Positions 5,417-62,884 of a stretch of DNA of 64,000 bases are shown piece by piece. The notes under the pieces are model-generated. The model ran no database searches. It saw only the letters and a program-made list of their open reading frames with translations, and was not told the DNA's origin. The stretch's first letter is position 1. Every line of letters begins with the position of its first letter. This DNA is from an uncultured virus (IMG/VR IMGVR_UViG_3300031787_000080) (lineage: Duplodnaviria; Heunggongvirae; Uroviricota; Caudoviricetes). The position numbers and the translations under genes are program-made. The stretch lies in IMG/VR virus record IMGVR_UViG_3300031787_000080; one strand, written 5' to 3'.

Positions 5417-5457
5417 AAAATCCCCTCTTTTCGTAAGACTGATCGTATATAAAAGAC

Positions 5458-9948: not shown

Positions 9949-9989
9949 AAAATCCCCCATATTCATAATCCCAATCGGATATATAAAGC

Positions 9990-10565
9990 ATGGCTAAATA
10001 CACGTTCACAACTTATCGACGAAAGCAAGGCACATCTGAATTCACGGTAGTAAATCAAGAAACCCTTGATCGTTATTCTGATTATCGCAATTGTAGTGTG
10101 CTTGATGATTTTGTGATTGTTCACAATCATAAAACTGGCACATATCATAATTTTTGCCGAAAAGACTTCTATGGCGATGTTGATGGGCAAATTATTTTCG
10201 GATGCAATCTATTTGGAGTTCCTGTTGTTGAACACAAAGATGATATGCAAATTCATTCTGTGACTTTCGCACAGGTAGCGACGTCGTGGCGCAATCGAGA
10301 CGTCTGTGTTCATTTTGACCGCAGCATTCATCCGCAAGATTTTCAAGATGTCCATGCCCTCATCGCCGCTATTGAAAATGCGCTTAAGAACATTCATGGA
10401 CAAAGCCAAGCTGCCAACCATGGAAGAATGTTGGCATGCGGAGGAGAAAATGCATATAGAGCCTATAACATGGGGGAAGTTTATTTTGCAATTTACCTTA
10501 TACATCAGCGAACTGGCGCAAGAGTTGTCACACTTAATAATCGCGTGGGGATTTTTTACTACTAA
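9990..10565 (+). CDS. Hypothetical protein
   Basis: After promoter; C-terminal YRAY..GE..F resembles 11536 ORF. Confidence 0.7.
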   Translation: MAKYTFTTYRRKQGTSEFTVVNQETLDRYSDYRNCSVLDDFVIVHNHKTGTYHNFCRKDFYGDVDGQIIFGCNLFGVPVVEHKDDMQIHSVTFAQVATSWRNRDVCVHFDRSIHPQDFQDVHALIAAIENALKNIHGQSQAANHGRMLACGGENAYRAYNMGEVYFAIYLIHQRTGARVVTLNNRVGIFYY

Positions 10566-14494: not shown

Positions 14495-14535
14495 AAAATC
14501 CCCCTTTTCATAAACACTGATCGGATATATAAATC

Positions 14536-15201
14536 ATGAAAAACATTATTGACGTACATGGAAACAAAACCAGAGCCATTTATCATATCACCATACGCGG
14601 AACTGGTGCATGGGCTCAAATTGATGTTAGATCAACTGGCCCTAAAGCGATCCCAGAATATACGATTGCAGTGGATGAGCCAGATCAATTAGTTAGTTGT
14701 ATGACCAATGCGATTAATGCCGCAGAATTTCTAGTGCAGAAGGAAAGAGAAAAGGGTACGCTGTGCGCCAACATTTCGCCCAACAATACTTTCATTGCAA
14801 TTGACAACACATACCTTCGGGGCATTGATGTGAATACTATCGTTGAAATTTTGGAAACAGACTTCATTCACGCATGGATTGAAAAAACAAACAATAGACT
14901 GTCAGCTAACATTAAAGTCAATGTAGAAATGCCCATTTTAGAGTTGCTGGGTTGCACTACAATTGATTATCGCTTTGTGAGCAATAAACACACCTCAATC
15001 CCTAAGCGCCGAATCAACTTCCCCGAAGGATTTATGTTGCGAGAAAACTCAATCGGAGACTGCAAATACTCTCTTGAAAATCTCACAAGAACGAGCATGG
15101 ACGGTTGCTATATTGCCGATCTGCAAATTCCAGATTGGATGATGCCTCTCGTTGACGCATTCATGGACGAAAACGCAGATTGGGTTAACAATCATCCCTA
15201 A
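14536..15201 (+). CDS. Hypothetical protein, paralog family D
   Basis: NTFI.ID, ILELL, L.EN..G..KYSL, L.I..W.MP..D.FM.ENA shared with 15550. Confidence 0.75.
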   Translation: MKNIIDVHGNKTRAIYHITIRGTGAWAQIDVRSTGPKAIPEYTIAVDEPDQLVSCMTNAINAAEFLVQKEREKGTLCANISPNNTFIAIDNTYLRGIDVNTIVEILETDFIHAWIEKTNNRLSANIKVNVEMPILELLGCTTIDYRFVSNKHTSIPKRRINFPEGFMLRENSIGDCKYSLENLTRTSMDGCYIADLQIPDWMMPLVDAFMDENADWVNNHP

Positions 15202-29511: not shown

Positions 29512-29596
29512 ACCGCTCTGGAGTAGCCAAACTTGCTACAGGCAACAGTCTTAGAAACTGTCTCTTTTCTGGGTTGGAATCCCAGGGGCGGTACCA
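29512..29596 (+). tRNA. tRNA-Leu(TAG), atypical
   Basis: ACCGCTC/GGGCGGT acceptor, ACAGT-CT TAG AA-ACTGT, CCA; enlarged D region, short variable loop. Confidence 0.75.
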
Positions 29597-31967: not shown

Positions 31968-31989
31968 AATTGAAAAATGAGAATCTAAT

Positions 31990-32290
31990 CGGGGCGTGGC
32001 GAAATGGCAGACGCAGGGGACTTATAAAATGAGCACTTGTTTGTGAAAGCTGCAAGTGAATGCAATCAAATTCGGTGAAACCTTAACAGTTAGGCTGATG
32101 GCAATACCGAGCCAAGCTAACTCAAAACAGAGTTAGAAGGTGTAGAGACTAGATGGTTGCTGCCTAAGTCGAAAGATATGGCAAAGGTATAGTCCAGACC
32201 ACAAAATCCTTTGGGATCGTAGTGAAAGCTATAGTGGTATGAAAATCCCTTAGTAGCAATACTGTGTGGGTTCGAGTCCCACCGCCCCGA
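31990..32290 (+). tRNA. tRNA-Leu(TAA) interrupted by a group I intron
   Basis: Exons 31990-32013 and 32242-32290 join to give GGGGA-CT TAA AA-TCCCT arm, T arm and CGGGGCG/CGCCCCG acceptor. Confidence 0.92.
32014..32241 (+). mobile_element. Group I intron (228 nt, no ORF)
   Basis: Inserted after anticodon U, ends in G; core elements AAATTCGGTGAA (P), AATACCGAGC (Q), GTAGAGACTAGA (R), AGGTATAGTCCA (S). Confidence 0.9.
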
Positions 32291-32340
32291 TTAGGTTATA
32301 TATTGATTACTAATGCGCTTTGTGTGCTTTTAGTATAAGA

Positions 32341-33215: not shown

Positions 33216-33283
33216 TATTTTCACATATGCATGACTATGTGAAAAATCCCCTGTTTTCTCTTTCTTGATCGGATATATAAATC

Positions 33284-33913
33284 ATGTTTAATATGAATGT
33301 GATTCTTTTCAAGAACAATTCTATCGAAGAAAATTATCTTTTCTCTGGTGAAAATTCTGAAGATGTTGCGAAAAAGGCAGAAAGCAAAATGATTGAAATT
33401 CTTCGTTCAGAAATGTCTAACTTTGACGAATACACGTCGGAAGATATTGACAACATTTTGGAAGATGGATATGAATCCTTTGGAAATGGAGCGGTTTTTA
33501 TTACGTGGCCTGACATTGTTGATGTTGATAAGGAGATTGATTCGGAAAATAATTTTGTTTTTCGTGGCACTATTGAATACTCCATCCCGCACATTGATTC
33601 AGAAGTAGTTCGCCTGTGCGCCGCACTAAATGAGCCCATTGAAGTTGGTCTACAGTGGGAATCACATTATCGCAATGGTAATGGCTACGCTGTCCGCGTT
33701 AATGCAGATATCTACTCAGTTGATGAAGAACTTGCTGCCGAGGAATTTAGTGATTATTGGGATTCAGGATGCGATGATGAAATTCGCTATTCTGGGGACT
33801 ACAATTGGTCCCTTTTGGGCAAAGACTATAAAGAGGCCATCAGTATTCTCCAAAAGTATGTTGATGAGCAAAAGCGTCGTTACCCAGGCTACGATATTAG
33901 AATTAGCAAATAA
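33284..33913 (+). CDS. Hypothetical acidic protein
   Basis: After promoter; C-terminus related to 23074. Confidence 0.7.
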   Translation: MFNMNVILFKNNSIEENYLFSGENSEDVAKKAESKMIEILRSEMSNFDEYTSEDIDNILEDGYESFGNGAVFITWPDIVDVDKEIDSENNFVFRGTIEYSIPHIDSEVVRLCAALNEPIEVGLQWESHYRNGNGYAVRVNADIYSVDEELAAEEFSDYWDSGCDDEIRYSGDYNWSLLGKDYKEAISILQKYVDEQKRRYPGYDIRISK

Positions 33914-35622: not shown

Positions 35623-35720
35623 TTTTGTAACAAAATCATAAAATTCAAAGCAGGTGTAGCTCAGTGGTAGAGCGCCCGCCGCGAAGGTTGATGGTTGCAA
35701 TATCGATAAATAGATTATGT

Positions 35721-36137
35721 ATGGCAATAACAAAATACAAAGGAGCCGTCGGGCTAACTAATGTAATGGCCTGTCTTGTCAATCAAAAAGCAAAAATCTT
35801 TGTTCCAATAGACGAAGACTGTCAATATGACCTGGTGGTAGATTATCAAAATTATCTTTACAGAGTGCAAGTTAAATATGCTGAGGCAAAAAATGGCAAG
35901 ATCGTTGTAAAGACGCGCTCAACGAATAACTATTGTGAAATTCGTTATACTAAAGATCATTTTGACGTGATTGCTGTTTGGGACAATGTTGGCAAAAAAG
36001 CATATTTTATTTCATCGAATTTAATCACAGAAGGAATGACGGAAATGACCTTGAGATTAGATGCACCAAAAAACAATCAAACTAAAAACATAAGATTGGC
36101 TCGTAATTATGAGCAATTTAATGCTGCGGTCGCATAG
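35721..36137 (+). CDS. PD-(D/E)XK endonuclease, I-Ssp6803I/group I intron-associated type
   Basis: KG..G, P......YDLVVD......RVQVK, Y....FD..AVW, LR...PKNNQ...IR.A..Y. Confidence 0.85.
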   Translation: MAITKYKGAVGLTNVMACLVNQKAKIFVPIDEDCQYDLVVDYQNYLYRVQVKYAEAKNGKIVVKTRSTNNYCEIRYTKDHFDVIAVWDNVGKKAYFISSNLITEGMTEMTLRLDAPKNNQTKNIRLARNYEQFNAAVA

Positions 36138-36205: not shown

Positions 36206-36320
36206 TTTTTCGCACATATGTGTCAGGGGTTCGAATCCCCTCTCCTGCTTTGAGTTGAGTGATGATATCCGATCATAAAAAATCCCCCTTTTTCTCAATA
36301 GTGATCGGATATATAAAGTA

Positions 36321-36917
36321 TTGCTGTGAGCTAAATCAATTGACACAGCATGATGAAACCAAAATCATCTAAAAACAATAAGGTGCTCCATATACGTCTG
36401 GGAAAGATAAATTAGACGTGGACACACTGTGATGTGGACTAATCACAGCGCACTGGGGCATGTGTGCAAGCCCGAAAAGCCTATCTTTACTGATATAGTT
36501 AAAGAGAAAGAGCAGAGAGTTAAGGCTTAAAATAAACTCCATGCGTTCGTAAGGATGAACTCAAAGACGAGTTCAGTTATGACTAGGATACGAGAGGAGG
36601 GAGGCAATGAGTTTCTCTCCTCTCCCCGACAAAGCGATTTCCGACTGCTCATCGGAGAAGTGATCTAGTAAAACACTCAGAAAAACACTAGCGTAGGAAA
36701 TGCGTTAATCCCTGATTTTTTATCGGTTTTTAGAGACAAAAAACTGTTCGTATAGGGCTTGCGGTAAGCCTCTTGTTTTAGCTAGGTGATCCTGTATGTA
36801 AAAACCAAGCGGATGGAACAAATCAATTTGTTTTCGCGAGCAAATGATCCATTGACTTTGGGGAACAGCGTAAGAACGTTTCGCCATGAGGCTTTGAGCA
36901 AAGTCTCGTTCCCCAAA
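36321..36917 (+). ncRNA. Large (~600 nt) structured non-coding RNA candidate
   Basis: Own promoter, no plus-strand ORF of 60 aa or more, more than ten hairpins, abuts tRNA-Asp. Confidence 0.7.
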
Positions 36918-41423: not shown

Positions 41424-41465
41424 AATTTCCCCTTTTTTCACCCGATCAGAATCATATAATAGATA

Positions 41466-53143: not shown

Positions 53144-53884
53144 ATGACAATCGAACACGATAACATCGAAGAGCGAGTTGGAAAGGGAACTTTAATTCGT
53201 ATTTCCAAGCTGCTTACCATGGCGAAGGATAAGCGCACGAACGAGAATGAAGCCCATAGCGCTATGCAATCGGCTCTTGCGCTTTTGTCTCGGTATAACA
53301 TTACGGCTTCTGATGTTGAGAATTCGGGCATTTTCGAGGAAGCAGTGGGTTCTGAATCTTTTAATCCAACTGAAAATCGAAATCACTCCACATGGCGATC
53401 CCAGCTAATCAATTCCATCGCAAGCACTCACTTCTGTCATGTCTATCGACGAAACGGGGGCGAGTTTATTCTGACTGGTAAGGAAACTAATCGTGCCGCC
53501 GCGATGATGCTTTTTCAGTATCTTTCCGTCGTGATTGAAGAAAATGCCCTTCAGGCTGTCCGCGAATACGACGGATGGGAATCGAAAAAGACTTATGGCA
53601 ATGCCTATCGGCTTGGAATGGTGACTCGAATTAATGAACGACTTATTGACCAAAAGCGCCAAATTATTCAAGAGGCTTCATCCAATAACACTGAAATTGT
53701 TGCTGTCAATCCTTATGAACAGGCCGAAAAAGAAAATCAAGCCTATGTCAAATCGAAGGGCGTAAAACTGTCGTCACACGCCTCAAGCAGTAATCTTGGA
53801 AGTGGCGCGGGTTGGCATCGAGGGCGCAAAGATGGCGAGCGCGTTGGGCTTACCGCTGGGCGAGCACTAGGATATAAAAAGTGA
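53144..53884 (+). CDS. DUF2786-domain protein
   Basis: RI.KLL..A....NENEA..A...A..LL.RYNI; W...L...IA...FC; Y..G; G...GR.DG. Confidence 0.8.
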   Translation: MTIEHDNIEERVGKGTLIRISKLLTMAKDKRTNENEAHSAMQSALALLSRYNITASDVENSGIFEEAVGSESFNPTENRNHSTWRSQLINSIASTHFCHVYRRNGGEFILTGKETNRAAAMMLFQYLSVVIEENALQAVREYDGWESKKTYGNAYRLGMVTRINERLIDQKRQIIQEASSNNTEIVAVNPYEQAEKENQAYVKSKGVKLSSHASSSNLGSGAGWHRGRKDGERVGLTAGRALGYKK

Positions 53885-54621: not shown

Positions 54622-55074
54622 ATGATTACCCTTTTCAAGTTCGAGACCGAAGATGACGGCACGATTATCATTCCGATGGAGAAAATCGGAGTCACTATCA
54701 AGGACCTACAAGATGCCTTCAAGGAGGCAAAAGAACACGCCCAAGACGAATATGATGTAGAGCTGACCAAAGACACGATTTTCACAGTCGAAGAAGTCCA
54801 CGGCCTGAAAGATTTTCTTGAGAAATACACTCTAATCGAGCGTCCGACGGCGAAGGCTGGCAAACCGTTCTCTAAAGCCGTTTTTGACCCTGATTTGCAT
54901 ACCCTTCCCGAAGTTGCAGACCAGAACCAAGTCTGGACCTGGACCGATTGTGATGATGGCGGAAGTTATCTGATTCAAGGATACCATCATGCCAATCGCT
55001 TGGGCTATATCTTTACTGAAAACAAAGATGGAGAACCAGTGCCGATTGATGGAAACTCCTACTTTGTAGACTAG
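54622..55074 (+). CDS. Hypothetical protein
   Basis: GGGAGG SD; VWT.....G.H..NRLGY..T. Confidence 0.7.
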   Translation: MITLFKFETEDDGTIIIPMEKIGVTIKDLQDAFKEAKEHAQDEYDVELTKDTIFTVEEVHGLKDFLEKYTLIERPTAKAGKPFSKAVFDPDLHTLPEVADQNQVWTWTDCDDGGSYLIQGYHHANRLGYIFTENKDGEPVPIDGNSYFVD

Positions 55075-55194
55075 GTGACTGGGAACAAGAAAGGGGGAAG
55101 TAACTCCCTCTTTCTTTATGACTTTCCGTGATTATGCGCCACGATCATTAAAAATCCCCTATATCTTATATTCCAATCGGATATATAAGATATA

Positions 55195-55365
55195 ATGAAA
55201 ACCAAACATGTTTTTCGAGTTTACCCCAAGAATGCAACATCTTCCGAGGATGCTTTGGTAATTGAGAAAACCATAAGCCCGAAATCTGTCCTTCGAGTAA
55301 TGGGAAACCTTCTTGGCAAGTATAATGCTTCAGAAGTGGCTTTATTGAAATCCGAGGACAAATAA
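55195..55365 (+). CDS. Small hypothetical protein (56 aa)
   Basis: ATG after promoter. Confidence 0.55.
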   Translation: MKTKHVFRVYPKNATSSEDALVIEKTISPKSVLRVMGNLLGKYNASEVALLKSEDK

Positions 55366-55442
55366 GACTTTTTTAACAAAAAGTCCCAAAATCATAGGAC
55401 GATTTTGTTTTTTGATCGTATAATAGATAAGGACACTTTATT

Positions 55443-55535
55443 ATGAAGACCCACACCACATCAAATACGAATATGGTCTTCACCCGACGCAATTCCGCGA
55501 CGGGCGTCCAACAACGCTGTCGGCGTTCCGCTTAA
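55443..55535 (+). CDS. Leader peptide MKTHTTSNTNMVFTRRNSATGVQQRCRRSA (putative attenuator)
   Basis: TATAAT and TAAGGA SD; QQRCRR matches the downstream Gln/Gln/Arg/Arg/Cys tRNAs. Confidence 0.75.
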   Translation: MKTHTTSNTNMVFTRRNSATGVQQRCRRSA

Positions 55536-55624
55536 GTCGGGCTGACACGTTACCACCTGCAAGTAACTTCTTTTTCGAAGAATTAGCCCGCTCTCTGAGC
55601 GAGACGTCGATTATCATCTCGTGC

Positions 55625-55698
55625 TCGGGGATCGTCTAGAGGCAGGACTCTGGTCTCTGGAACCAGAAGCGGTGGTTCGAATCCATCTCTCCGAGCCA
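55625..55698 (+). tRNA. tRNA-Gln(CTG)
   Basis: U1-A72, CTGGT-CT CTG GA-ACCAG, G73, CCA. Confidence 0.93.
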
Positions 55699-55705
55699 GC
55701 TTCAC

Positions 55706-55791
55706 TGGGTCTTAGGCGAATTGGTAGAGCCGCCTGTCTTTGGAACAGGACTCCTGAAAAGGTGGAGGTTCGAATCCTCCCGACCCAGCCA
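55706..55791 (+). tRNA. tRNA-Gln(TTG), long variable region
   Basis: CCTGT-CT TTG GA-ACAGG, T arm, G73, CCA. Confidence 0.85.
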
Positions 55792-55863
55792 ATTAAAGGC
55801 TTTATGCATTTTGAAAAAATAATTAAAAAAGGCTTTCTTAACAGAAGTACATAATTAAAACGA

Positions 55864-56649
55864 GTGATTCAAACTTCCAATAAGAAAACAAGAGTAAAGC
55901 GCAGTCGAATTTGGACGATGCCTAAAGACGAGTTCGCTCAACTAGTGGCCTCAAGTCAAACTTATGTCGAAATTCTCCGAGCCATTAACTACACCATACG
56001 AGGAGGAGCTTTTCGAATTTTAAAAGAACGAATTGCGACAGAAATGATCGACGATTCACATATATTAAAGAATGGAAGGCAAACCATTTATGCCCATAGA
56101 TTCAATACTCGGTCAGATGACGATATATTTTGCGAAAATTCTACATACAATAGTGGCCCTGCCCTGAAAAAGAGAATGATTAAGCTAGGCTTACCTGAAG
56201 AATGCACAAAATGTGGGCTTGGTGCAACATGGAATGATGAACCTCTATCTCTGCAAGTAGACCATATCAATGGGGTGCGCAACGATAACAGATTAGAGAA
56301 TTTGAGGCTTCTGTGCCCAAATTGTCATTCTCAAACCGAAAATTTTGCTGGCAGAAAGTTGAACGCAAAAAACAAATCATGTCCAGAATGCTGCGCTAAG
56401 ATCAGTGGATACCGTAAAGATCAGAGATGCCAATCTTGTGCCAATAAGATCAGGTCTAGAGAAATGCAACTAATATCAAAACCATCAAAAGACGAGCTTC
56501 AAGATATGTTGTGGAAAATGCCCGCGACTAGGATTGCTAAGATATACAATGTGTCCGATAAAACAGTTGGTAATTGGGCTAAATCCTACAAAATTGACAA
56601 ACCGAGCCGTGGACACTGGGTCAAAAAAAATACTCCCCCCCCCTTGTAG
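55864..56649 (+). CDS. HNH homing endonuclease with C-terminal Zn-finger/HTH
   Basis: C..CG....WN...L.LQVDHING...DNRLENLR.LCPNCHSQT; IAK.YNVSD..V..W. Confidence 0.9.
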   Translation: MIQTSNKKTRVKRSRIWTMPKDEFAQLVASSQTYVEILRAINYTIRGGAFRILKERIATEMIDDSHILKNGRQTIYAHRFNTRSDDDIFCENSTYNSGPALKKRMIKLGLPEECTKCGLGATWNDEPLSLQVDHINGVRNDNRLENLRLLCPNCHSQTENFAGRKLNAKNKSCPECCAKISGYRKDQRCQSCANKIRSREMQLISKPSKDELQDMLWKMPATRIAKIYNVSDKTVGNWAKSYKIDKPSRGHWVKKNTPPPL

Positions 56650-56715
56650 CTTAATGGATAGAGCGCAGCACTTCGGATGCTGATGTTATGGGTTCGAGTC
56701 CTATCGAGGGGGCCA
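56640..56715 (+). tRNA. tRNA-Arg(TCG)
   Basis: CAGCA-CT TCG GA-TGCTG, CCA. Confidence 0.93.
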
Positions 56716-56726
56716 AAATTTAAAAC

Positions 56727-56802
56727 ACGCCTGTAGCTCAGTGGATAGAGCATCAGCTTGCGGAGCTGAGGGTCGGAGGTTCGAACCCTCTCAGGCGTGC
56801 CA
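56727..56802 (+). tRNA. tRNA-Arg(GCG)
   Basis: TCAGC-TT GCG GA-GCTGA, CCA. Confidence 0.93.
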
Positions 56803-56808
56803 ATATAC

Positions 56809-56883
56809 GGCCACGTACCCAAATGGTTAAGGGCTCCCTCTGCAAAAGGGATGTTGCGAGTTCGATTCTCGCCGTGGCCTCCA
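56809..56883 (+). tRNA. tRNA-Cys(GCA)
   Basis: TCCCT-CT GCA AA-AGGGA, U73, CCA. Confidence 0.95.
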
Positions 56884-56927
56884 AAAATCCCCTATATTTT
56901 TGTCACAATCGGATATATAGTTAGAGA

Positions 56928-57494
56928 ATGACCCAGATTCAAATCGAAGCCGCGAAGCAAATGAAAAAGGCCTGCTATCGGAGTCGCGGGACCTTAATCA
57001 AAGCAATTCTGGCTTATGTCGAATACCTGATGCGATGTTCGGATTGCCCGCGCAATTGGCCCAAGCACAATCAAGTGAACGTTTCTGCCGAAACTCTAAA
57101 GTCTCTTGCGTGGCTTTACGGCAATTATCATACTGCGGTTTTAGGACAGAAGTTAAACAACCTTCAGTTTTGGATTGAAGAAAGTGGTCGTCAAATCCCG
57201 AGCGAATCTATCGAAGACTATCATGTAAACTCTCTTGACAATAGGATGCTTACCCGAAGAGAGATTTGGGCTGGTGAGATTTTGAGTCACTTGGTTTTTG
57301 CGATTGTCTTTCCCGAAGAAATGGCTCAGACGGGGCTGACTGCTGATGGAATGAATCAAAGATTCGCGGAACTTGATTATGATTTTAACTTGGTGCTTGA
57401 AGATGCTTCAGAAGGCTACGGGACGATTTGCGCATGGATGTCTAAATCAACATCGGTTGAAGTCTTGCGAGACATCTGGCACTTAAACAAGTAA
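56928..57494 (+). CDS. Hypothetical protein
   Basis: After promoter. Confidence 0.7.
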   Translation: MTQIQIEAAKQMKKACYRSRGTLIKAILAYVEYLMRCSDCPRNWPKHNQVNVSAETLKSLAWLYGNYHTAVLGQKLNNLQFWIEESGRQIPSESIEDYHVNSLDNRMLTRREIWAGEILSHLVFAIVFPEEMAQTGLTADGMNQRFAELDYDFNLVLEDASEGYGTICAWMSKSTSVEVLRDIWHLNK

Positions 57495-59892: not shown

Positions 59893-59986
59893 TGCGACAC
59901 TATATCATTTTTATGACTTTCTACGATTGTGTGGCACGATCATAAAAAATCCCCCTAATAAAGCTGAGTAATCGGATATATAATGT

Positions 59987-60066
59987 GGGGCAAATAGCTC
60001 AGTAAAGACATATGGGAATGTAACAGTAGAGGTTTCCGCGTATGTTCAAATCCTGTTGCTCCACCA
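59987..60066 (+). ncRNA. tRNA-like RNA with Ala identity (G3:U70, A73, CCA), no anticodon arm
   Basis: GGGGCAA/TTGCTCC-A-CCA, TAGCTCAG, GTTCAAATC; own promoter. Confidence 0.6.
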
Positions 60067-60107
60067 AAAATCCCCTATATTTTCCGCGTTCATGCCATAT
60101 ATAAACT

Positions 60108-62493: not shown

Positions 62494-62671
62494 AAATTAC
62501 TTGACAATCGGAAAAATCCCCCTTTTCCACTAACACAATCGGATATATAAGCAGGTGTCCAGGGGGCGGTGAAAGTCCGCAAGGCGGCTGCAGAGTCATG
62601 AATCTGCAGTGCGGCTGGTTTCCTCTGCGCTTGCGCAAGACCACCCTGGCGAGCCTTCACAAGAGAGAAAT

Positions 62672-62884
62672 ATGCACGAGTTTGGTATAACTTTCCAAAA
62701 CATCCATGGCGAAACATATGACAGCCCCGAATATGTTGGTCTTACGCTGCCGTTTCGCCCAAATGTTGGTGATGAAATCCTGATTGTGGGGGCAGGAGGA
62801 AAATCCTACAGAGTCTTGAAAGTTGAATATTGCGCTGGGCCATCGTTTGGTGACTTTCTTCTCACCGTCGAACCCGTGGTGTAA
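62672..62884 (+). CDS. Hypothetical protein
   Basis: LPF.P.VGD.I motif. Confidence 0.6.
   Translation: MHEFGITFQNIHGETYDSPEYVGLTLPFRPNVGDEILIVGAGGKSYRVLKVEYCAGPSFGDFLLTVEPVV

Follow-up and report, generated by a model that had tools for sequence, protein, structure and literature searches.

In a 64,000-nucleotide stretch of DNA from an uncultured phage (hereafter the window), we read positions 55431-55624 as a stable, non-coding leader at the 5′ end of a phage pre-tRNA transcript, with a probability of about one half. Transcription would start at a TATAAT-type promoter and would run through a unit with the order Gln-Gln-(HNH)-Arg-Arg-Cys. The leader would fold during synthesis into two rigid domains, the second of which, a 25-bp helix with a three-way junction, would end 13 nt before tRNA-Gln. 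This long helix may prevent pairing between the leader and the first tRNA, and a single-stranded entry site for RNase P may be left before tRNA-Gln. An RNase III-like nuclease specific for double strands would probably cut this helix, and a nuclease-resistant RNA of about 150 nt would survive and accumulate. The 30-codon frame contained in the leader would be a by-product of the CpG-rich helix, presumably untranslated and not used as a sensor. The features of the locus are as follows.

55383-55413, + strand: weak hairpin followed by a U-rich run, the probable end of the unit of an upstream 56-codon gene
55415-55430, + strand: promoter-like ATCG-TATAAT-AGATAA with TATAAT at 55419-55424, a variant of the phage gene-start cassette
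55431-55624, + strand: predicted 5′ leader of the pre-tRNA transcript, from the putative start to the last base before tRNA-Gln
55431-55509, + strand: domain 1, with the closing helix 55431-34/55506-09 and hairpins A and B
55443-55535, + strand: ATG frame of 30 codons from the list of open reading frames, ending in QQRCRRSA and then TAA, with a second in-frame ATG at 55473
55444-51/55475-82, + strand: hairpin A, with a 23-nt single-stranded C/A-rich loop
55455-55606, strand not shown by the contigs: stretch recovered as a short exact contig in two RNA-type libraries
55483-55504, + strand: hairpin B of the predicted fold
55509-55526, + strand: QQRCRR codons CAA CAA CGC TGT CGG CGT, the first three in the interdomain linker and the last three in the 5′ arm of the long helix
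55519-55611, + strand: domain 2, a helix of ~25 bp capped by a three-way junction
55625-55698, + strand: tRNA-Gln(CUG), tRNA call and Rfam tRNA
55706-55791, + strand: tRNA-Gln(UUG) of 86 nt with a long variable arm, tRNA call and Rfam tRNA
55864-56649, + strand: HNH endonuclease gene inside the tRNA block, its 3′ end overlapping the start of tRNA-Arg(UCG)
56640-56715, + strand: tRNA-Arg(UCG), tRNA call and Rfam tRNA
56727-56802, + strand: tRNA-Arg(GCG), tRNA call and Rfam tRNA
56809-56883, + strand: tRNA-Cys(GCA), tRNA call and Rfam tRNA
56886-56927, + strand: following gene-start cassette, marking where the tRNA unit ends

The promoter-like element was recognized by eye, by alignment with 38 + strand matches of the gene-start cassette of this phage. 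Examples of the aligned cassettes are ATCGTATATAAAAGAC-ATG at 5442 and the TATAATAGATAA twin at 41455. A generic sigma-70 scan made no call at 55415-55430, and the upstream AAAAATCCCC box is not at its usual 21-nt spacing before TATAAT. The element is a putative promoter of the tRNA unit, and alignment of its -10 sequence with the phage's own cassette would place the transcript start at about G55431. Such a start would leave a 12-nt 5′ UTR with only GGA of the sequence AAGGA, and this GGA is paired. The terminator scan lists the hairpin at 55383-55413 on the - strand only; its + strand version has one C/A mismatch.

All five tRNAs that the original prediction assigned to the unit, Gln(CTG), Gln(TTG), Arg(TCG), Arg(GCG) and Cys(GCA), were recovered at 55625-56883, with scores of 49-68 bits against the Rfam tRNA model. 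The HNH endonuclease gene matches phrog_10822 at 1.2e-47, as well as Pfam HNH and HNH_3. At the gathering score, Rfam 15 found tRNAs and one group I intron in the whole window and nothing else. In the same phage, a group I intron interrupts a tRNA-Leu(UAA) gene, which we take as a weak indication of a cyanobacterial host. A joint in the DNA run X2 that skips 55190-56898 was rejected as a repeat artefact because one of its sides has 22 letters and lies inside the repeated promoter cassette, and because the flanks have no extra depth.

The leader (55431-55624) has a predicted fold of -62.3 kcal/mol, and each of its helices has pair probabilities near 1; the copies compared (loci L002 and L003) are identical and hence carry no covariation in support of this fold. 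For 55426-55624, the energy was -62.5 kcal/mol as against -44.9 +/- 3.9 kcal/mol in shuffled sequences (z = -4.56), and none of the 200 shuffles was as good. The long helix, part of the minimum-energy fold, pairs 55519-55545 with 55583-55611 and has one 1x1 loop at 55528/55602, while the hairpins of the three-way junction occupy 55549-55567 and 55568-55582. About two turns of double-stranded RNA, with internal loops tolerated, are what an RNase III-type nuclease takes, and the predicted helix of ~25 bp offers them. Early transcripts of phage T7 carry RNase III hairpins; similarly, the long helix here, imperfect and with an internal loop, would be a plausible site for a single cut that leaves a protective 3′ hairpin. 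The three-way junction was also considered as a degenerate tRNA and rejected: it has no T-loop or D arm, and ARAGORN was silent even at a relaxed threshold. Two other tRNA leaders of this phage are folded as well. In the Asp leader (z = -2.84), a Y-shaped junction lies 14 nt before the tRNA; for the Gly leader, z is -2.94. Neither of the two contains a comparable frame, which counts for the non-coding reading.

The frame itself is as had been described. It ends in QQRCRRSA and uses CGA, CGC twice, CGG, CGT, CAA twice and TGT, and its QQRCRR tail has the same three amino acids as the five tRNAs downstream. The count of six Thr codons, for which the unit has no tRNA, was also right. Several of its properties speak for a non-coding leader. 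CAG, the codon read by Gln(CUG), the first tRNA, is absent; five of the 11 CpG of the frame are at codon positions 1-2; and the whole frame lies inside stable helices, with the AUG at the edge of an 8-bp helix in which its U and G are paired. There is no clear ribosome-binding site for the frame, and the phage's usual gene-start cassette is missing at its start. Against the non-coding reading, AAGGA lies 9 nt before the AUG and would be a possible ribosome-binding site if transcription started a few bases upstream.

The frame is not unusual in length, because 5000 dinucleotide shuffles of 55431-55624 gave an ATG frame of at least 30 codons in 13% of cases; its codon cluster is unusual. The cluster was defined as at least six of eight consecutive codons from {Gln, Arg CGN, Cys}, and it was present in 2 of the 913 dinucleotide shuffles with a frame of at least 25 codons. 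When 5000 shuffles preserved the structure, 58 had the cluster in any frame and four had it inside an ATG frame of at least 20 codons. In the six frames of the 64-kb window, QQRCRR is the only Gln/Arg(CGN)/Cys run of six, next to six runs of five (one antisense to QQRCRR) and 21 runs of four. From these counts, arithmetic puts the probability of finding the longest run in the 194-nt leader, on the + strand, at ~0.0015. A regulatory-codon cluster of the kind that attenuators have is present. The match between codons and tRNAs is real and statistically odd, and it counts against the non-coding reading.

The rarity of the cluster by these three nulls favours a reading in which the frame is translated and the leader acts as a sensor without a terminator, and we regard this as unlikely. 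The time that a ribosome spends on CAA CAA CGC TGT CGG CGT would keep 55519-55545 unpaired. This dwell time would set read-through, cleavage or folding of the pre-tRNA, and the output of Gln, Arg and Cys tRNAs would be tuned to the efficiency with which their codons are decoded, for example after loss or cleavage of host tRNAs. The cluster covers the three amino acids that the unit serves, and it matches four of the five anticodons. The frame begins 12 nt after the putative transcript start, has a length typical of leader peptides and reaches its stop codon within the 5′ arm of the long helix, and QQRCRR is placed just where a paused ribosome would hold this helix open, which argues against the non-coding reading. 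When ribosome-sized masks were placed in the folds, the 3′ arm paired differently, and with two of the four mask positions so did tRNA-Gln itself. However, no terminator appeared in any masked state, and the effect, where there is any, is misfolding of tRNA-Gln, which has the wrong sign for a replacement circuit. The poor start context, the missing CAG codon, the six Thr codons and the frame-free Asp and Gly leaders also stand against a sensor.

The defining parts of an attenuator are missing from the leader. No intrinsic terminator (a G+C-rich hairpin plus a U-tract) was found between the frame and the first tRNA, nor any other defined output element. A terminator would be expected there because canonical hairpin-plus-U terminators are present elsewhere in this phage. 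The absence of a strong intrinsic terminator had been noted as a caveat in the original prediction, and the scan of 55431-55624 on the + strand, which finds no terminator-like site, bears it out. The GTTAC/GTAAC pair before TTCTTTTT, mentioned in the same place, sits at 55549-55575. The only U-run, 55568-55575, follows a 5-bp hairpin with two G-C pairs, and the contigs from both RNA-type libraries run 27-31 nt past it. The mutually exclusive pairings that had been proposed do exist at their coordinates, but only a trivial 5-bp hairpin, at 55513-55527, competes with the long helix. Of the claim of leader-peptide attenuation, the codon match stands, while the terminator and the choice between antiterminator and terminator do not, which leaves the claim as a whole undecided. 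There is a short ATG frame near the putative promoter, with a partly paired AUG and only GGA of AAGGA within the predicted transcript. Rho-dependent control had been suggested as well; cyanobacteria are not known to have Rho, which may bear weakly on this suggestion.

Leader-peptide transcription attenuators are well known from enterobacteria (trpL, hisL, leuL, thrL, ilvL and pheL). The phage leader resembles the trpL type in having a short frame behind a putative promoter and a matching codon cluster at the entrance of an RNA helix. It differs in having neither a terminator hairpin with a U-tract nor an antiterminator alternative, in its weak start context and in the genes downstream, which are tRNA genes and not genes of biosynthetic enzymes; it also matches no Rfam leader family. 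In attenuation of the pyrBI type, the leader frame enters the attenuator hairpin, and a closely following ribosome blocks the hairpin. Likewise, the phage frame ends in the 5′ arm of a large helix, which a ribosome would physically prevent from forming. The pyrBI helix is a true terminator with a U-tract, whereas the phage helix is followed by UAUCAUCU.

Part of the leader sequence was also found in two RNA-type libraries from different studies. In library X19, a 152-nt contig corresponds to 55455-55606, and in library X20, a 157-nt contig corresponds to 55459-55602, both with 0 differences; the contigs show neither strand, true ends nor level, and one of the two runs may be DNA. Nothing else of the 1851 bases of 55150-57000 was found in either library at a likeness of at least 95%. 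The ends of the two contigs agree within 4 nt on both sides; they fall in the loop of hairpin A on one side and, on the other, at or close to the 1x1 loop in the long helix. Taken as an external spacer of a tRNA precursor, the leader extends on the + strand from the putative promoter to the first tRNA, and part of its sequence is present in two RNA-type libraries.

In a distinctly unlikely alternative, the product of the locus is the stable RNA of ~150 nt. Processed from the head of the tRNA transcript, it would serve the phage as a trans-acting small RNA or as a decoy, whose target might be an RNA of the host, an RNA-binding protein or a nuclease directed at tRNAs. Two RNA-type runs yielded this piece alone out of the 1851 nt, with almost the same ends, which fits this alternative. 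The 23-nt single-stranded C/A-rich loop on a rigid scaffold fits such a role, as does the finding that no Rfam 15 family, including the T-box and amino-acid leader families, matched the leader at E <= 1. The phage is near-clonal in 18 of the 23 listed runs, from at least 10 studies. On the other side, a search of the window for antisense targets found none; its best match was 13 nt long (E = 0.19). tRNAs are poorly captured in RNA libraries of this kind, and therefore a conspicuous leader need not be functional. No homologue was found in phage records, in viral contigs or by a 24-nt pattern scan of species genomes.

The 3′ external transcribed spacer of glyW-cysT-leuZ in E. coli is a sponge for small RNAs. 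The phage contigs resemble it as a non-tRNA piece of a tRNA precursor that would accumulate as a discrete RNA. The phage piece differs in that it comes from a 5′ leader, has far more structure, is encoded by a phage and is without a known partner. The tRNA gene cluster of phage T4 yields the stable small RNAs species 1 and 2, also called RNA C and RNA D, and the present region would be a further phage tRNA region that yields an extra stable, structured RNA, as predicted from its fold. No similarity of the leader to the T4 and T7 RNAs was found, either in sequence or in Rfam.

It is highly improbable that the frame, an ATG frame near a promoter-like element, encodes a real basic peptide of 30 residues with a function unrelated to tRNAs, given that it lies wholly within stable RNA helices, lacks the usual gene-start cassette and a clear ribosome-binding site, has a length within chance (13% of shuffles) and gives a peptide with no family or look-alike in Pfam, PHROGs or Atlas.

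Little is known about the control of phage tRNA genes. If the frame were a sensor, it would be a new use of ribosome-mediated sensing; a search by title and abstract found no paper on leader-peptide control of tRNA genes. If it is not a sensor, the locus holds an undescribed, very stable phage RNA that is present in two environmental RNA-type libraries, and it shows that a striking codon coincidence can arise in a CpG-rich helix. Phage tRNAs are now also regarded as answers to host defences that cut tRNAs, besides their role as codon supplements (PMC10264068, PMC11464382).

Relatives of the unit were sought at the nucleotide and protein levels. Against 50,697 phage records, blastn with the unit gave only tRNA matches, and with the leader alone nothing better than E = 0.2; tblastn with rIIA reached a best identity of 29%. 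In viral contigs, the flanking proteins had no match, and the 25-mer of tRNA-Gln and the promoter cassette gave 0 matches each. The rIIA query found one viral contig at 38% identity, and alignment of the 246-aa neighbour found one locus at 24% identity that has no tRNAs. One 24-nt leader pattern gave 0 matches in species genomes. Among the matches listed for metagenome contigs there were two loci (L002 and L003), both 100% identical to the window. At the protein level, relatives were found for two open reading frames: P0074-P0078, encoded on contigs of up to 61 kb, are 52-58% alike to that at 53144-53884, and P0002 is 96% alike to that at 54622-55074.

The window is a portion of a large phage that carries rIIA/rIIB and a nicotinamide phosphoribosyltransferase-like gene. 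Its G+C content is about 42%, and 15 tRNA genes were called in it by ARAGORN. A 203-kb metagenome contig carries an identical copy. No relative was found among phage records, where the best rIIA identity was 29%. Viral contigs yielded only an rIIA relative at 38% identity and, in a locus without tRNAs, a relative of a neighbouring gene at 24% identity. At the protein level, ORF 54622-55074 has a relative (P0002) at 96%, and ORF 53144-53884 has relatives (P0074-P0078) at 52-58%.

The original prediction of a frame with a QQRCRR tail ahead of Gln, Gln, Arg, Arg and Cys tRNA genes was confirmed: the frame lies at 55443-55535, and all five tRNA genes are on the same strand. We put at about 0.5 the probability that the sequence before the first tRNA gene (55431-55624) is a stable non-coding pre-tRNA leader, whose long helix would act as a folding insulator ahead of tRNA-Gln and as a processing helix of the pre-tRNA. 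The features of the unit are as follows.

55431-55509, + strand, predicted domain 1 of the leader: 4-bp closing helix, hairpin A, then hairpin B
55519-55611, + strand, predicted domain 2 of the leader: helix of some 25 bp, interrupted by a 1x1 loop (55528/55602)
55625-55698, + strand, tRNA-Gln(CUG)
55706-55791, + strand, tRNA-Gln(UUG)
55864-56649, + strand, HNH endonuclease gene (phrog_10822 at 1.2e-47; Pfam HNH)
56640-56715, + strand, tRNA-Arg(UCG)
56727-56802, + strand, tRNA-Arg(GCG)
56809-56883, + strand, tRNA-Cys(GCA)

The tRNA-Gln(UUG) measures 86 nt and has an extended variable arm, formed by a 3-bp stem and a GAAA loop; tRNA-Gln does not usually take such a type II shape. U1-A72 and G73 are kept in both this tRNA and the adjoining tRNA-Gln(CUG).

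Nearly every gene of the phage is opened by a cassette consisting of AAAAATCCCC, a spacer of about 21 nt, a TATATA/TATAAT box and an ATG a few bases on. Examples are found at 9951-9992, 14497-14538, 33245-33286, 55150-55197 and 56886-56930. In the window, 11 strict matches were found vs 0 expected, and a looser pattern gave 38 matches on the + strand. The form seen is AAAAATCCCC, ~21 nt, ATCGGATATATAAA and ATG 2-4 nt further, and the CCA end of tRNA genes often directly abuts the AAAAATCCCC box. Most cassette-type gene starts have no Shine-Dalgarno sequence; with the ATG so near the TATA box, transcripts would lack a 5′ leader, unless the cassette works at the level of RNA. The leader carries the downstream half of the cassette only (ATCG-TATAAT-AGATAA, 55415-55430), which was not called as a promoter in a generic sigma-70 scan. 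GGA at 55431 stands in place of the ATG of other genes, and we therefore infer from the sequence that transcription starts near G55431.

From this start to the tRNA, the predicted fold of the RNA has an energy of -62.3 kcal/mol, and pair probabilities are close to 1 in all helices. The stretch 55426-55624 reached -62.5 vs -44.9 +/- 3.9 for shuffles (z = -4.56), and none of 200 shuffles was equally stable. The 8 bp predicted for hairpin A involve two bases of the AUG, U and G; its C/A-rich loop measures 23 nt. The predicted domain 2 helix bears at its tip a three-way junction from which two small hairpins arise, and 13 single-stranded bases separate the domain from tRNA-Gln. No Rfam family matched the leader at E <= 1.

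Folded leaders were also predicted before other tRNA units. Before tRNA-Asp, a Y-shaped junction ends 14 nt 5′ of the tRNA (z = -2.84 for the wider stretch; 2/200 shuffles as good). This three-way junction (36857-36917) has a 9-bp closing helix and two hairpins, and it shares its layout with the inner portion of the Gln leader. A hairpin domain precedes tRNA-Gly (z = -2.94; 0/200 shuffles as good), and a cloverleaf-like element precedes tRNA-Leu(GAG) (z = -1.16). No comparable ATG frame was found before any of these three. Folded leaders thus recur in the phage, unlike codon-matched frames.

That the leader is a translation-coupled sensor working without a terminator is rather doubtful, and its odds are raised by the codon run. 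The 30-codon ATG frame ends in ...QQRCRRSA and contains CGA, CGC twice, CGG, CGT, CAA twice, TGT and six Thr codons. Its length by itself is not unusual, as an ATG frame of at least 30 codons occurred in 13% of 5000 dinucleotide shuffles of 55431-55624; the codon cluster is unusual. Six consecutive codons all belong to the Gln/Arg(CGN)/Cys set, which makes up 8.9% of codons (686/7676) across 32 long phage frames. At least six set codons in eight consecutive ones were seen in 2 of the 913 shuffles with a frame of at least 25 codons. Of 5000 structure-preserving shuffles, 58 had such a cluster in any frame and 4 had one inside an ATG frame of at least 20 codons. All six frames of the real window hold one run of six (that of the leader), six of five, one of them antisense to the leader site, and 21 of four. 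The calculated chance of the single longest run landing in the 194-nt leader on its strand is ~0.0015. Two points count against these estimates: the match criterion was set post hoc, and only 5 of the 11 CpG in the frame are at codon positions 1-2, as would be expected for any one of the three reading frames across a CpG-rich helix. In the predicted fold, the frame's final five codons, together with its stop codon, make up the 5′ arm of the domain 2 helix.

Several results argue against such a sensor. The frame has no CAG codon, and leaders elsewhere in the phage lack a comparable frame. The start-codon context appears poor: the AUG lies 12 nt from the inferred start, so that of the AAGGA motif just GGA would fall inside the RNA, and this GGA is predicted to pair with 55506-55509. 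As the original prediction had cautioned, there is no strong intrinsic terminator before the tRNAs; a scan of 55431-55624 found no terminator-like site on the + strand. The U-run at 55568-55575 is preceded by a hairpin of 5 bp, two of them G-C, and UAUCAUCU, not a U-tract, lies directly 3′ of the long helix. This absence carries weight because canonical hairpin-plus-U terminators are present elsewhere in the phage. The pairings proposed earlier all lie where they had been placed. Alternative, switching helices are missing. When a ribosome-sized mask was applied at four positions in folding, a terminator formed at none, and at two of the four tRNA-Gln was predicted to mispair with the freed 3′ arm. 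If this acted as a switch, stalled ribosomes would mean less tRNA, which is the wrong sign for the sensor.

Public sequencing runs were also compared with 55150-57000. Among the 23 runs listed, 18 DNA-type runs from at least 10 studies contain all sampled words, and two RNA-type runs contain 7-8% of them. The studies date from 2017 to 2024, and the metagenome matches listed include two contigs with 100% identity to the window, over 5350 and 8450 bases. The phage is unusually clonal and widespread. In a metatranscriptome (X19), one contig of 152 nt matches 55455-55606 without any difference. In X20, listed as a cDNA library though its material may be DNA, the central 144 nt of a 157-nt contig match 55459-55602, again with 0 differences. 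Two independent libraries thus share the same piece, with both ends within 4 nt; by random draw from 1851 bases, such agreement is estimated at ~0.5%. The remaining matches in both libraries, 5-11 letters off over ~50 nt, are tRNAs or HNH motifs of other organisms. The piece of about 150 nt continues through the weak U-run; its 5′ end is in the hairpin A loop, past the first AUG, and its 3′ end falls on or close to the 1x1 loop in the long helix. Contigs carry no information on strand, level or true ends, and these two are good evidence, though short of conclusive, that a stable RNA of at least about 150 nt exists. That this RNA is itself a trans-acting product is improbable, and that the frame encodes an unrelated small protein is very improbable. 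Systems for comparison include trpL-type attenuators, pyrBI, the glyW-cysT-leuZ spacer, T4 stable RNAs and T7 RNase III sites; leader-peptide control of tRNA genes was not the subject of any title or abstract found in a full-text literature search.

One DNA contig (run X2) joins 55190 to 56898, which would amount to a deletion of the whole tRNA module between two cassette copies. The joint is probably a repeat artefact, since it has only 22 letters on one side and no extra depth in the flanks; recombination between the cassettes is conceivable.

Two cloverleaf-like elements with a CCA end (29512-29596 and 59985-60067) were not called by default ARAGORN. In the one before tRNA-Leu(GAG), the anticodon-type loop reads CUUAGAA and the T-loop TTGGAAT; the other is directly 3′ of the cassette at 59971. 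Behind tRNA-Ser(UGA) lies an apparent tRNA 5′ half (35640-35690); a 3′ half that matches it, with T arm and acceptor, comes after tRNA-Thr(UGU) (36215-36245). Between them lie a 157-codon frame (35664-36137) and tRNA-Thr(UGU); the halves may be one tRNA gene split by insertion. Between the cassette at 62515-62551 and the next ATG (62673), about 120 nt (62550-62672) are G+C-rich and apparently structured; no Rfam match at gathering score was found there, and the stretch may be a regulatory 5′ UTR. With introns allowed, ARAGORN showed the anticodon loop of tRNA-Leu(UAA) (31989-32291) to be interrupted by a group I intron of 218 nt, and Rfam Intron_gpI matched inside this gene at 32013-32216 with 58.2 bits. 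Such an intron is typical of cyanobacteria and plastids, and its presence in the phage may be a hint at the host.
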